Shown: piece by piece, positions 42,316 through 45,676 of the stretch
Layout of the letters: each line of letters starts with the position of its first letter
Numbering within the stretch: the first letter of the stretch is position 1
Source: an uncultured Candidatus Saccharibacteria bacterium
GTDB taxonomy: Bacteria > Patescibacteriota > Minisyncoccia > Phycocordibacterales > UBA9973
DNA: 54,503 nt
Direction of reading: 5' to 3'
NCBI GenBank assembly: GCA_964606295.1
Contig: CAZSFR010000001.1
Span: forward strand, 1-54,503
Notes under the pieces: model-generated
What the model was told of the DNA's origin: nothing
What the model saw: only the letters and a program-made list of their open reading frames with translations
Databases searched by the model: none
Made by a program: the position numbers and the translations under genes

Positions 42316-43710
42316 TTATTGCTTTTTTCGTAGATCAATACCCAACTCTCGGAGTTGCTTTTCTGGAATTTCAGACGGAGAGCCCATCATAAGGTCCTTG
42401 CCTTCTCCAGTTTTTGGGAATGCGATTACCTCGCGAATGTTTGGTTCGTTTTGAAGAATCATGACAATGCGATCTATACCCGGTGCAAACCCACCGTGTG
42501 GCGGTGCGCCGTAGGTGAATGCTTCGAGCATGTGACCAAATTTCATCTGCTGTGTTTCTTCTGGTATTTTGAGAAGATCGAATACCTGCTTCTGGATATC
42601 TCGCTCATGGATACGAATGGAACCAGAAGAAAGCTCGTAACCGTTTAACACAAGATCATACGCATTTGCGCGGATGCTGAACATATCTTCTCCACTCATA
42701 AATCTTTCCTTATCTTCTGGTTTAATAGAACAAAATGGATGGTGGACGGCCTGAAGTTCTCCATCATCGGTCTTTTCAAACATTGGAAAATCAAGAATCC
42801 AACAAAACGCAAGTTCGTTCGGATCATTTCTATCCTCGCGCAAATCTGGCTTGTCAGAGCCATGTTTCTCAACACTTTCAGCGTAGGTAAGCCGTGGAAA
42901 CGGAAGTGATGTTATTTTCTTTTCTGGATATAGATTTGTAACAAGCTTGATAAACATTTCTTCCGTATACGCCAGCACATCTTCTTGTTCAACAAATGAC
43001 ATCTCGAAATCGAGTTGTGTGAACTCTGGTTGTCTGTCTCCGCGCGTGTCTTCGTCACGCATACATCGTGCAATTTGGAAGTAACGCTCAAATCCCGCGA
43101 CCATTGAGAGTTGTTTGAACTGTTGTGGAGATTGTGGAAGTGCATAGAATTTTCCATTCTCAAGTCGCGAAGGAACGAGGTATTCGCGTGAACCCTCCGG
43201 TGTTCCCTTCATCAAAATTGGTGTCTCGATTTCAACAAAATCATTTTTGTGCATGTAATCGCGGAAGAAAGTGATGATTTTGTCGCGCATGCGGATGTTC
43301 TTTTGCATTCGTTTACTTCGGAGATCAAGATAACGATATTTGAGTCTAACTTCCTCTCCAACTTCCATCGTGTCACCAGAGGGGTCAAAGGGTGGTGTTT
43401 CAGCCTTGTTCAAAACCTTTATTCCTAATATTTCAAGCTCTATGTCTCCGTTTTGTTTGTCAGCTTGTTTGTTCCGCTCTGGTCGTTCGTTTACCTTGCC
43501 GGTGACCTCTACAACCCACTCTGGTCGTAGCGTCTTTCCTACTTCCATAGCCTCCGTGCTGTTTGGAAGGATCACACCTTGGACATAGCCTGACATATCT
43601 CGAAAATCGAGAAATATCATTTTCCCTTGGTCGCGACGCACGTCCACCCAGCCCATGATCGTCACCTCTTCTCCTTTTTTCGCACTCAAGTCTCGTATGT
43701 ATGTTCTCAT
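42316..43710 (-). CDS. aspS: aspartyl-tRNA synthetase, short type (about 464 aa, no room for a GAD insertion domain)
   Basis: An OB-fold N-terminus (GWVDVRRDQGKMIFLDFRD) and class II motifs (FQIARCMRDED, GGFAPGIDR). The start is set at MRTYIRDL; upstream codons of the ORF belong to the T-box leader. Confidence 0.9.
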   Translation of the reverse strand: MRTYIRDLSAKKGEEVTIMGWVDVRRDQGKMIFLDFRDMSGYVQGVILPNSTEAMEVGKTLRPEWVVEVTGKVNERPERNKQADKQNGDIELEILGIKVLNKAETPPFDPSGDTMEVGEEVRLKYRYLDLRSKRMQKNIRMRDKIITFFRDYMHKNDFVEIETPILMKGTPEGSREYLVPSRLENGKFYALPQSPQQFKQLSMVAGFERYFQIARCMRDEDTRGDRQPEFTQLDFEMSFVEQEDVLAYTEEMFIKLVTNLYPEKKITSLPFPRLTYAESVEKHGSDKPDLREDRNDPNELAFCWILDFPMFEKTDDGELQAVHHPFCSIKPEDKERFMSGEDMFSIRANAYDLVLNGYELSSGSIRIHERDIQKQVFDLLKIPEETQQMKFGHMLEAFTYGAPPHGGFAPGIDRIVMILQNEPNIREVIAFPKTGEGKDLMMGSPSEIPEKQLRELGIDLRKKQ

Positions 43711-43925
43711 ATATGTGTAGCCGGGAAACAAAAATCGCCTCCACGAACTATGAATTATTTCATAATTACGCAGGGGCGATTCTTGCGAAACGCGGTGCCA
43801 CCCTACTTTGTTCTCCTCAATCCGACCGATTGCAAGAACCTCATTGTATGTACTACAAGCTATCACTTATAAGCTGTATTTGTTCCTCCCCTTTTGTCAA
43901 AAGGATCAAAGGTAACAACACTATA
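43711..43925 (-). promoter_or_regulatory. T-box leader (riboswitch) of aspS with extended -10 promoter and terminator
   Basis: The minus strand carries TGGTATAGT (-10, 43920-43925), a stem III-like hairpin, the T-box AGUAGGGUGGCACCGCG (43791-43807) and a terminator (43726-43782) ending in UUUUUGUUU. Confidence 0.75.
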
Positions 43926-43940
43926 CCACAGCTTTTCAAA

Positions 43941-43973
43941 TAAAAAAACCGGTAGAAATATTCCACCGGTTTG
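43941..43973 (-). terminator. intrinsic terminator after the 229-aa gene
   Basis: The minus strand reads AAACCGGT-ggaatatttct-ACCGGTTTTTTTATTT. Confidence 0.75.
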
Positions 43974-43989: not shown

Positions 43990-44679
43990 TTATGAAATAA
44001 GACTTTTGGAAGATGCGCCTATGGCAATATCCAAAGGATACATAGATGATAGAACTACATTATTCATTTCTTCCATGATTTCCGAAGTATATTCTTCCGA
44101 TTCAGCTATAATTTGCTCAACCGATTCTTGCATCCAAATCGCATGTTCATCGGCATCTACTTCAATATGTTCATCGATGTAGTTCATGATTGCTTTTGGA
44201 TAGTGATCGAGTACGGCCGGTCGAATTACCTGAAGCATTTTTGGGAATATATGCTCTGTGGCAAGCATGAAACCTGCTTTTTGCGGTTCAGTTGCCTTCT
44301 TCAGCATAAGATTTTCCTGCTGAGCGCGCTTTGTCGCATCCCTGTAGATTGGATCGTTCATATCGATTTTAAGACAGATACTTTCGATAAAGTCATCAAG
44401 AAGCACCATGTGCGCACTACCTCCGCTATATCCTGTCTCACATGCAAGATTGTCAGAGAGCGCTTGTATAAAGCGTTTATTTCTGGCACGTTTGAGCATG
44501 TACCTGAGTCCCGATACCCACCATACACCGTCGGCATAGAGACACTTGATGATCATATCAAGGCCGGCTTTGGAAAGCGTTCGCGCGCTTATCTCATGGT
44601 TAATACGATGGTCCGCCAAACTTTGTTCAGCCGCTACCAGAATTTGCATTACTGCAATCATTGATTCATTTTTTTTCAT
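43990..44679 (-). CDS. heme-oxygenase-like fold protein (CADD/PqqC/TenA-like, possible diiron enzyme)
   Basis: An all-helical composition with candidate ligand pattern E..(8)..H (ACETGYSGGSAH), EH (LATEHIF) and H-x3-D-x3-H (DEHIEVDADEH). Assigned by motif resemblance only. Confidence 0.5.
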   Translation of the reverse strand: MKKNESMIAVMQILVAAEQSLADHRINHEISARTLSKAGLDMIIKCLYADGVWWVSGLRYMLKRARNKRFIQALSDNLACETGYSGGSAHMVLLDDFIESICLKIDMNDPIYRDATKRAQQENLMLKKATEPQKAGFMLATEHIFPKMLQVIRPAVLDHYPKAIMNYIDEHIEVDADEHAIWMQESVEQIIAESEEYTSEIMEEMNNVVLSSMYPLDIAIGASSKSLIS

Positions 44680-44872
44680 TTTTGTTATTTAGTGAATGTA
44701 CTATAAAAAAAATTTTGTGCATCATGATAAGAAGAATTGCTGTTGATCCTAGAATTACAACTGCAAGAAATATATCAGATCGACATAGTGAAAAAATTGA
44801 TTGAAGAATAGTCAGAATCAGTAGCCCTAGTACTATGAATAGAGATACTTTTTGAGTTAAAGTCTTTTTCAT
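44666..44872 (-). CDS. small membrane protein (68 aa, 2 TM)
   Basis: A hydrophobic ORF that overlaps the next gene by 14 nt. TATAAA lies 7 nt before the ATG. Confidence 0.45.
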   Translation of the reverse strand: MKKTLTQKVSLFIVLGLLILTILQSIFSLCRSDIFLAVVILGSTAILLIMMHKIFFIVHSLNNKNEKK

Positions 44873-44976
44873 ATCATTATTTATAATTTTTTAAAGAATA
44901 TTTCTAAATCCATCAGGACTTTGAGGCGAGCGCTATCCGTTCTGATCAGTGCCCACCTGTAAGGCCACATGGTACA

Positions 44977-45004
44977 AACAAAAAACCGGCTGATTGGCCG
45001 ATTG
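44977..45004 (-). terminator. candidate attenuator terminator
   Basis: The minus strand reads AATCGGC-caatca-GCCGGTT followed by TTTTGTTTG. Its 5' arm overlaps CGGCCAAT, which can instead pair with ATTGGCCG at 45043-45050. Confidence 0.5.
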
Positions 45005-45029
45005 CTTCAATGAGAAGTGTATACTACGT

Positions 45030-45101
45030 CAAAAGACGCTCCGGCCAATGAATCTGAGCCACCATGATAAATTATTTAGTATTTTCCCGTTTTCTTTCAT
45101 A
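45030..45101 (-). CDS. 23-codon ORF MKENGKILNNLSWWLRFIGRSVF (candidate leader peptide, tandem Trp codons)
   Basis: TTGACC-17 nt-TACACT lies 7 nt before the ATG, the same geometry as real genes here. TGG TGG is at 45060-45065 and the ORF overlaps alternative RNA helices. Confidence 0.4.
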
Positions 45102-45159
45102 TGTAGCAGTGTACTAGTACGGTGGTAAATGGTCAAGCAGGTTCGCTAAAATGTGTGGA

Positions 45160-45192
45160 TAACTAAAAAACTGCCTATTTAGCAGTTTTTTT
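45160..45192 (-). terminator. intrinsic terminator closing the trpS operon
   Basis: AAAAAACTGC-taaatag-GCAGTTTTTT; the stop codon sits in the loop. Confidence 0.7.
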
Positions 45193-45465
45193 GAATATCT
45201 TTGAGAAGGAACCGTGTGGGTCGTCAAGTTCCTTTACTCCCCTTTCCACCGTTGCAACACCTACGCCAAGAGAGCGCGAGATGTAGCGATGCGTTTTCCC
45301 TTGCGCAAGCATTTTGACGATTTGAATACGGATGATCATTTCGCGATATTCGTTCTCAGTTAGTAAGTCCTTAAGGAATTCATCCAACTCGTTAGCAGAT
45401 TTCATTTTTTTGAAAAGTGCTATTAATTCGTTATGCCACTCTTTTTTCATGGTCTTTTTGCGCAT
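45175..45465 (-). CDS. TrpR-family (YerC/YecD-like) DNA-binding protein
   Basis: LFKKMKSANELDEFLKDLLTENEYREM..RIQIVKMLAQGKTHRYISRSLGVGVATVERG matches the Trp-repressor-like YerC/YecD pattern. The ORF is open to 45510 (TTG); the ATG at 45465 follows the upstream stop. Confidence 0.75.
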   Translation of the reverse strand: MRKKTMKKEWHNELIALFKKMKSANELDEFLKDLLTENEYREMIIRIQIVKMLAQGKTHRYISRSLGVGVATVERGVKELDDPHGSFSKIFKKTAK

Positions 45466-45466
45466 A

Positions 45467-45676
45467 TTAGTGGCTGTGCATGCTTTCGAATGCGTTGCAG
45501 ATAGGTCCAAAAGGGAGAGAGATTGCTATCAAGAATATTTCGAGTGGTTTGGTGTAAGGATGATTTTTCTTGCGCAGATATTCAATGCATTTCTCTAGAC
45601 CCAAGTGAATGGCAAAAAAGACAGCAACGATGATGCCGAGAATGAGTTTGATGATGAACATAATAACTTCTCCCAT
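45467..45676 (-). CDS. small membrane protein (69 aa)
   Basis: A hydrophobic ORF between trpS and the TrpR-like gene. Confidence 0.45.
   Translation of the reverse strand: MGEVIMFIIKLILGIIVAVFFAIHLGLEKCIEYLRKKNHPYTKPLEIFLIAISLPFGPICNAFESMHSH

Follow-up and report, generated by a model that had tools for sequence, protein, structure and literature searches.

In Escherichia coli the trp operon is controlled at two levels, by TrpR repression at trpO and by attenuation through the leader peptide TrpL, which contains tandem Trp residues (WW) (PMC7755916). In Chlamydia trachomatis trpRBA, trpR is directly upstream of a Trp-regulated intergenic region that contains a putative TrpL. This TrpL is 59 amino acids (aa) long, has no tandem W and has been judged a poor or degenerate attenuator; the targets are the salvage genes trpBA, and YtgR attenuates (PMC7755916). 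Leaderless short open reading frames (ORFs) with polycysteine in mycobacteria are Cys-responsive attenuators (bioRxiv 10.1101/834739). Here we describe a leader with tandem Trp codons, adjacent to a gene for a TrpR-like protein, in DNA from an uncultured member of the Patescibacteria (contig CAZSFR010000001.1 of assembly GCA_964606295.1). We refer to the whole stretch that was analysed, 54,503 nucleotides (nt), as the window.

The initial annotation had proposed trp-type attenuation at this leader. Conservation, covariation and footprint folding support that proposal, and a putative TrpR operator strengthens it; the operator and the exchangeable downstream genes are additions to that account. 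We infer that the locus is probably a two-layer tryptophan-starvation switch in the style of E. coli. We hold this with fair rather than high confidence because the comparative sample is small and the analysis was done in silico.

Like the E. coli system, this locus has a protein of the Trp-repressor family in which the ligand-contacting residues are the same, a putative operator (GTACTAG/CTAGTAC, centred on CTAG) that overlaps the promoter, a short ORF with tandem Trp codons and the matching stalled-ribosome logic, and a terminator whose 5' arm can pair instead with an upstream segment. It differs from the E. coli system in the organism, an ultrasmall symbiotic Patescibacterium, and in that the leader ORF lies at the 5' end of the predicted mRNA and lacks a Shine-Dalgarno sequence. 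The putative operator is a single 10-base-pair (bp) palindrome, doubled only in one distant relative (locus L022), and the leader sequence does not match the Rfam Trp leader. Two features of a classical attenuator are missing: the 1:2 pause or anti-antiterminator hairpin is absent in most variants, and the targets, which vary among close relatives, are not trp genes and do not supply the sensed amino acid. As in C. trachomatis, the organism is host-dependent with a reduced genome and trpR adjoins the regulated intergenic region; unlike in C. trachomatis, the targets are not trpBA and the leader has tandem W. As in the mycobacterial polycysteine ORFs, a leaderless first-cistron short ORF with repeated codons for one amino acid would control a downstream operon. 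Here the codons are for Trp and not Cys, the phylum is another one, and an intrinsic terminator/antiterminator and a repressor operator are visible.

Parts of the leader and the TrpR-like gene

All of the leader features are on the minus strand, and the palindrome reads the same on both. The parts that the argument depends on are as follows.

45175-45465, minus: gene for a TrpR-family repressor, 96 aa when read from the ATG at 45465 (a TTG at 45510 opens the listed ORF); Pfam Trp_repressor, E = 2.6e-17
45131-45136, minus: -35 hexamer TTGACC of the leader promoter; sequence and pattern scan
45111-45120, both strands: palindrome GTACTAGTAC, proposed TrpR operator, which runs from the end of the spacer into the -10 and takes in its first 3 nt
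45108-45113, minus: -10 hexamer TACACT, 17-nt spacer from the -35, 7 nt ahead of the ATG at 45100; sequence and pattern scan
45029-45100, minus: leaderless leader ORF (predicted), 23 codons and TGA, MKENGKILNNLSWWLRFIGRSVF; the stop TGA is at 45031-45029
45059-45064, minus: TGG TGG, codons 13-14, two adjacent Trp codons proposed to do the sensing
45040-45052, minus: region 2, 5' strand of the antiterminator, core ATTGGCCGG at 45049-45041; folding and alignment
44990-45002, minus: region 3, 3' strand of the antiterminator, core TCGGCCAAT at 45001-44993, overlapping the 5' arm and loop of the terminator
44976-45003, minus: predicted intrinsic terminator, AATCGGC / CAATCA / GCCGGTT (hairpin 45003-44984) followed by TTTTTTGTTTG; sequence and pattern scan

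The promoter (TTGACC-17-TACACT, 7 nt to the ATG), the short ORF with adjacent TGG TGG codons and a TGA stop, and the two competing helices were all described in the initial annotation. All are present in the minus-strand sequence, although most of the positions given for them were 1 nt too high. An independent pattern scan also lists both the promoter and the terminator. Trp is 0.87% of the residues in the proteins of the window, with a single WW in 15,280 residues, and a 22-codon ORF would contain WW by chance with a probability of ~0.0016.

The first layer of the switch would be repression: the Trp-loaded TrpR-like protein would bind GTACTAGTAC and block the leader promoter, because this palindrome overlaps the spacer and the -10. 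The second layer, suggested by sequence, comparison and folding, would be attenuation. Transcription would start at or next to the ATG, so the mRNA would be leaderless and the 23-codon ORF translated at once. When charged tRNA-Trp is ample, the ribosome would reach the TGA and cover region 2 (45052-45040), the hairpin at 45003-44984 with its T-run would form, and a terminated transcript of ~120 nt would be made. When charged tRNA-Trp is scarce, the ribosome would stall at TGG TGG (45064-45059) and region 2 would be free to pair with region 3 (45002-44990). This pairing would prevent formation of the terminator, and RNA polymerase would read into the downstream genes. The same switch and the same linker would serve an exchangeable gene slot that ends at the aspS leader.

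A leaderless mRNA would fit the rest of the window. As had been pointed out, the spacing between the -10 and the ATG recurs at other genes. TAnnnT is found 6-7 nt before the ATG, without a Shine-Dalgarno sequence, at ~15 of the 55 genes of the window (trpS and dnaB among them), so leaderless mRNAs seem to be common here. Shine-Dalgarno-like motifs are almost absent in the window, even at operon-internal genes. In the seven distinct TrpR-linked variants of the leader (the window and six from relatives, see below), the distance from the -10 to the ATG is exactly 7 nt in every case. A further motif, AGTTTTCCACA(G), occurs as TTATCCACACA in the window (45151-45161, minus strand), ~25-30 nt upstream of the -35 and just past the TrpR stop codon; it is also kept at the equivalent place in L001, L013, L015, L018, L019, L021 and L022.

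The TrpR-like protein scores 48 bits with the NCBIfam TrpR model, under the 67-bit cut-off. T44, R54, A80, T81, R84 and G85 (E. coli numbering) are invariant among the window protein, seven homologues and E. coli TrpR, so judging by sequence it appears to keep the residues that contact Trp and read DNA.

Among the fetched loci, the putative CTAG-centred operator goes together with a TrpR-type gene. There is a single exact copy of GTACTAGTAC in the 54.5 kb, with 0.45 chance matches expected at one mismatch or fewer. It was found once, at the same place, in 9 of 9 fetched loci that have a TrpR gene and in 0 of the 12 other loci fetched by then, including the TrpR-less loci L002-L006. Two metagenome loci obtained later that have a TrpR-like gene, L022 and L026, carry an operator-type site too. 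In L026 the same operator, -10 box and 7-nt spacing sit at the promoter of the TrpR-like gene itself; the counterpart is the autoregulation of E. coli trpR. The operator DNA in the co-crystal of E. coli TrpR (1tro) is TGTACTAGTTAACTAGTACA, and GTACTAGTAC matches its ends (PMC2504314). The natural E. coli trpO is CGAACTAGTTAACTAGTACG (PMC11748629); the operator region of L021 is TGTACTAGTACA. The site in L022, GTACTAGTACACTAGTAC, agrees with the symmetric E. coli operator at 16 of 18 positions and has two CTAG centres 8 bp apart. The putative operator lies in the promoter and adjoins the gene for a TrpR-like protein with Trp-binding residues, so dual control by repressor and attenuator is the likely design.

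The sequences around the operator differ between loci. The flanking arms vary yet stay self-complementary, for example GACAGcGTACTAGTACaCTGTC (L018, 775-796) versus TAACAGcGTACTAGTACaCTGTTA (L019, 565-588), which could hint at a hairpin or an extended symmetric site. In L001 (6518-6575), and likewise in L013 and L014, a full TTGACA-17-TACACT promoter lies ~22 nt further upstream. In this arrangement the operator, a perfect 16-bp palindrome AGCGTACTAGTACGCT, is at the transcription start, and the leader ORF would gain a short 5' untranslated region. These three loci form a lineage with a single W, and its TrpR protein is 44% identical to that of the window.

Conservation of the reading frame and of two competing helices

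We gathered relatives only through homologues of tryptophanyl-tRNA synthetase (TrpRS) and TrpR, followed by contig look-ups, and through one DNA-pattern scan of metagenomes. The named best matches of TrpRS were Patescibacteria (Nomurabacteria, Paceibacterota, Minisyncoccia), and TrpRS of the nearest relatives was 77% identical to that of the window. The pattern scan gave eight hits, two of which, L022 and L026, were kept as distant versions. The other six were set aside as chance matches because the matched ATG did not begin a short ORF containing W, a judgement made on the ORF alone. There was no match when species-representative genomes were queried with the 229-aa protein encoded downstream of the leader or with an alignment of the 69-aa membrane protein encoded upstream of TrpR, when JGI metagenomes were queried with the 69-aa alignment, or in an exact look-up of the 111-aa, TTG-start version of the TrpR ORF.

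In contigs of the closest relatives the gene order is kept: dnaB, trpS, the 69-aa membrane protein gene, the TrpR-like gene, a gap, variable genes and aspS. Every such contig has a homologue of the leader element in the gap between the TrpR-like gene and the variable genes. Elsewhere the arrangement changes. L002-L006 have lost the TrpR gene and retain MNLAHTYFLNHWFRNIGAVCAIPKEIR followed by the terminator. In L022 the order is murC, TrpR-like gene and a leader beginning MKRADIKKGQNTKTQANAWWNTRL. L026 (50% GC) has the same terminator module and linker ahead of a gene for a PPDK_N-domain protein, and its leader ORF ends in EPRLWWASKEVVFGLTTIF. In L008-L012, with TrpRS 70% identical to that of the window, the membrane-protein gene, the TrpR gene and the leader are all absent, and in L008 trpS directly abuts aspS. 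In L007 the aspS leader comes immediately after the small membrane-protein gene; Rfam gives this aspS leader no score.

We compared ten versions of the leader: seven distinct TrpR-linked variants including that of the window, one TrpR-less type, and the two distant metagenome versions. The peptides encoded by the TrpR-linked variants are:

Window: MKENGKILNNLSWWLRFIGRSVF
L018: MKKGGLNSISINKSWWLGTLVSRS
L019 and L020: MKKEGLSNVSTNKSWWLGTLVGRS
L015 and L016: MKKGELNNISITKSWWHGSLVSRS
L021: MKKFGLNNTSIDKSWWHGSLVSRS
L001: MKNLQNITTTSLWQTPIS
L013 and L014: MKNLQNITIANLWQTPIS

We found that a short ORF with an in-frame W or WW is kept in all ten versions; it recurs, along with the terminator and the competing helix, in every related locus that has the element. 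The ORFs of the relatives are 18-43 codons long, and W is all that the peptides of the different versions share once the initiator Met is set aside. The homologous TGG lies 33, 36, 42 or 54 nt from the ATG, four length classes that are each a multiple of three. This conserved frame, together with the conserved W, speaks against a chance ORF.

The peptide itself is poorly conserved. Between the window and relatives the codons before the W are 31-40% identical, near the level of the fourfold-degenerate sites of the TrpR gene (23-45%); identity is higher from the W to the terminator (59-67%) and in the promoter (62-71%). The conserved nucleotides GCCGGAGC encode (S/G)-R-S in four variants and G-R-S in the window; in L001 and L013 they come after the stop codon. 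Between 5 and 24 residues separate the W from the last codon, and the C terminus is not conserved in sequence. We set aside a conserved micro-protein because the peptide termini are unconserved and the stop codon shifts. What selection appears to maintain is the frame, the Trp codon(s) and the RNA, and not the peptide product; this is the signature of a leader peptide.

The two helices claimed to compete are there: ATTGGCCG (45049-45042) is the exact reverse complement of CGGCCAAT (45000-44993), which overlaps the 5' arm and loop of a hairpin that is followed by a T-run. The homologous terminator stem and T-run are present in relatives. In an alignment of the seven TrpR-linked variants, 90.5% of cells in the 9-bp core of the antiterminator pair, compared with 22-43% when the partner strand was slid by 1-3 columns. 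Both sides have changed in two core pairs (AU/GC/UA and GC/AU), and 11 of 500 shuffles matched the observed score. RNAalifold recovered the antiterminator unprompted, extended it to 12 pairs with a third covarying pair (UA/CG), and added a 9-bp inner helix. Several of the covarying positions fall within the loop of the terminator. This fits a competing helix; a simple terminator would impose no constraint there. The terminator core itself, CCGGC/GCCGG, does not vary among the relatives and differs in the window only in being UCGGC, closed by a G-U pair; it is therefore uninformative about covariation.

The other versions agree with this pattern. The antiterminators of L006 and L022 are spelled differently and pair equally well, over 13 and ~9 bp, respectively. 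A covariance model built from the seven variants recovered L026 (28 bits, E = 3e-5) and L022 (E = 0.05), and it found no second copy of the attenuator in the window. An alternative helix that excludes the terminator appears to be under selection, as judged from this small sample of seven sequences.

Ribosome position and alternative explanations

We folded the leaders with a ribosome masking the RNA from -15 to +13 relative to the P site, a calculation of equilibrium thermodynamics and not of kinetics. All seven TrpR-linked variants folded into the antiterminator (-21 to -28 kcal/mol) when a W codon occupied the A site, and into the terminator when the stop codon did. When the ribosome was moved along the window leader codon by codon, the probability of the terminator was at most 0.08 through W14, 0.31 at codon 15 and 0.94 from codon 16 on. 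In five relatives the switch came 3-5 codons past the last W. In this model, the Trp codons are placed such that a stalled ribosome would allow antitermination and a ribosome at the stop codon would block the antiterminator.

Several observations weigh against the two-layer switch. Without a ribosome, the RNA of the window and of five relatives adopts the antiterminator fold (terminator probability 0.03 and 0.00-0.03, respectively); only in L001, L006 and L022 is the probability of the terminator ~0.94. That is, the classical 1:2 anti-antiterminator is missing from the window and those five relatives, and termination would need translation. A search for a 1:2 hairpin in the window gave nothing beyond 4-bp options, and this candidate was rejected. 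In L006 and L022 the stop codon is 30-57 nt beyond region 2, so masking of region 2 by a ribosome at the stop codon is inapplicable there, and in L026 the position of the leader start is ambiguous. In the window leader the minimum-free-energy structure from RNAfold includes the proposed antiterminator helix, but the fold of the leader as a whole is not unusually stable (z = -1.17). The terminator stem has only 7 bp in the window, one of them G-U, and a core of 5 bp in the relatives, and it does not covary. The covariation of the antiterminator comes from seven sequences in ~4 lineages, and the shuffle control ignores their relatedness. Rfam, including its Trp leader family, gave no correct-strand match to the window leader, either at the gathering score or at E <= 10; relatives at the gathering score and the L026 spacer at E <= 1 had no match. 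The downstream genes have no known link to tryptophan. Finally, the coupling of the switch to these genes is less certain in the window than in relatives, because of two features between the terminator and the first downstream gene:

44901-44978, minus: GC-rich structured insertion of 78 nt, seen as a 78-column alignment gap in all relatives
44873-44900, minus: linker with a conserved ATTCTTTAAAAA motif, and with TATAAA + 7 nt + ATG, a possible weak promoter; sequence and alignment

The second promoter had been put forward by the initial annotation and is present in the linker; as a full candidate it reads TTTAGA-17-TATAAA-7-ATG and lies ahead of a gene for a 68-aa protein. The 146-nt stretch 44860-45005, which includes the insertion and also the terminator hairpin, has a fold z of -2.6. 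No other copy of the insertion was found in the window or the fetched loci. The insertion also holds an ORF that begins MWPYRW.

The insertion and this promoter favor a different explanation, that the leader is a stand-alone, TrpR-repressed small gene for a micro-protein or a ~120-nt small RNA with its own terminator, and that the downstream genes are promoted separately. The helix of regions 2 and 3 would then merely be part of the RNA fold, and the product could act in trans like Sinorhizobium rnTrpL/peTrpL. That the downstream genes of relatives are unrelated to one another also fits, and trans-acting attenuator RNAs and leader peptides are known (PMC6614838, PMC7298713). The S. meliloti trpL element is likewise a Trp-codon leader with a terminator, whose RNA and peptide could act themselves; unlike the element described here, it is upstream of trpE(G) (PMC6614838, PMC7298713). 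Four observations make a stand-alone gene unlikely. In the two relatives that were scanned (L018 and L019), there is no promoter-like site between the terminator and the downstream genes, and the leader promoter is the only such site between TrpR and those genes. In several relatives the T-run is followed by a conserved linker of ~45 nt (AATTCTTTCACAAAACAAAAACAAG...) that reaches the ribosome-binding site and start codon of the next gene. The N- and C-termini of the peptide are unconserved and its stop codon moves across conserved nucleotides. Covarying positions in the terminator loop are expected of a competing helix. In addition, a role in trans would add to attenuation and not replace it.

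The codon scans bear on a second alternative, a general attenuator of translation stress or antibiotics of the erm, bmrB or vmlR type, in which any stall in the leader induces and the Trp codons are incidental. Ribosome-mediated attenuation of resistance genes is known (PMC4191407), and for six of nine variants the model lets the antiterminator form whichever codon the ribosome stalls on, as far as the Trp codons. Some of the proteins encoded downstream, such as a PPDK_N kinase-like protein, a HAD hydrolase and an oxidase, resemble enzymes that modify small molecules. In contrast, the terminator probability of L022 was lowered only at codons 20-21 (its Trp codons are 19 and 20) and that of L006 only at codons 10-13 (Trp codon 12), that is, only by stalls at or adjacent to W; in L001 it was lowered at codons 7-16 (Trp codon 13). 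In addition, nothing in the peptide other than W or WW is conserved, and the promoter has a TrpR-type putative operator and adjoins a TrpR gene. We consider a general stress attenuator to be quite improbable.

TnaC has the local sequence SKWF and needs a fixed spacing and specific C-terminal residues. An arrest peptide like TnaC, a Trp-sensing leader (PMC8429421), in which free Trp in the tunnel stalls the ribosome at the end of the ORF and induces at high Trp, is suggested by the local likeness of KSWW and NHWF to that sequence and is hardly credible here, because induction at high Trp would oppose repression by a Trp-loaded TrpR, and because the distance from W to the last codon and the C-terminal residues vary as described above and the design has an intrinsic terminator with a competing helix and is not Rho-dependent.

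Downstream genes and the biology of the proposed switch

The two genes downstream of the leader in the window are:

44666-44872, minus: first downstream gene, encoding a 68-aa protein with apparently two membrane helices; no family match
43990-44679, minus: second downstream gene, encoding a 229-aa heme-oxygenase-like dimetal oxidase; Pfam Haem_oxygenas_2, DUF3050

Pfam and a fold match bear out the earlier description of the second product as a heme-oxygenase-like protein. The AlphaFold model of the 229-aa protein has a confidence score (pLDDT) of 92, and its top fold match is CADD/CT610 of Chlamydia (TM-score 0.74-0.78), a heme-oxygenase-like dimetal oxidase. Its invariant residues include E81, H90, E142, H171, D175 and H179, which look like metal ligands, judged on their own and not against those of CADD. 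It also contains VWWV, probably the sole WW among the 53 window proteins analysed (the count was not split by protein). An unusually low Trp content was considered for the downstream proteins and gave no signal. The statement that no trp biosynthesis genes are present holds for the window.

The identities of the downstream genes differ between close relatives, and these are never trp genes. Most of the products in relatives have no family match; the exceptions are a HAD-type hydrolase and the PPDK_N-domain protein. The slot contains:

L001, L018 and L021: a 284-aa family
L015 and L019: a 227/250-aa family
L015: a 246-aa protein
L014: 155-aa and 81-aa proteins and the 369-aa member of a 408/369-aa family
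L006: a HAD hydrolase and the 408-aa member of the 408/369-aa family
L026: a PPDK_N-domain protein

In every contig that extends that far (the window, L001, L006, L018 and L019), the promoter and leader of aspS, a conserved flank, close the slot, and in four of these five a terminator hairpin precedes them.

The aspS leader is ~230 nt long (43711-43943 in the window, minus strand), with a T-box core, UAGGGUGGCACCGCG, and a terminator, and is kept in L001, L006, L018 and L019. It scores 33 bits with the Rfam T-box model (gathering score 93, E = 5e-6), with 67 model positions of Stem I missing, and its fold z is -5.5. The true start of aspS is the ATG at 43710; the listed 516-aa ORF (42316-43866) is over-extended. 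On the other side, between trpS and the TrpR gene, the 69-aa membrane protein (45467-45676, minus strand) is 88-93% identical in relatives, compared with only 77% for their TrpRS. The protein matches no known family and ends in ESMHSH, and a perfect TTGACA-16-TATAAT promoter is just upstream of its gene (45713-45686).

It is possible, and we suggest it only tentatively, that the TrpR-like gene, the operator, the Trp-codon attenuator and the linker form a conserved "expression socket" of Patescibacteria in which tryptophan supply is read as a measure of provisioning by the host. If so, strain-specific genes would be swapped between the attenuator and the aspS leader, and different lineages would switch on different functions at low tryptophan.

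Patescibacteria are thought to lack amino-acid synthesis and to depend on a host; for this organism, the absence of trp genes covers the window only. To our knowledge, almost nothing is known about how these bacteria sense their nutritional state, and we found no report in the literature that links TrpR or leader-peptide attenuation to Patescibacteria. The parts are small enough for work in vitro or in a heterologous host, although the organism is uncultured. If the two-layer switch is real, the operator and attenuator logic of E. coli would have persisted between very distantly related bacteria and would work on a leaderless mRNA. The locus would be a sensor, fully defined by its sequence, that reads free Trp by way of TrpR and charged tRNA-Trp by way of the leader, in an organism that is probably unable to make Trp, and it would point directly to the genes that are turned on when the supply from the host fails.

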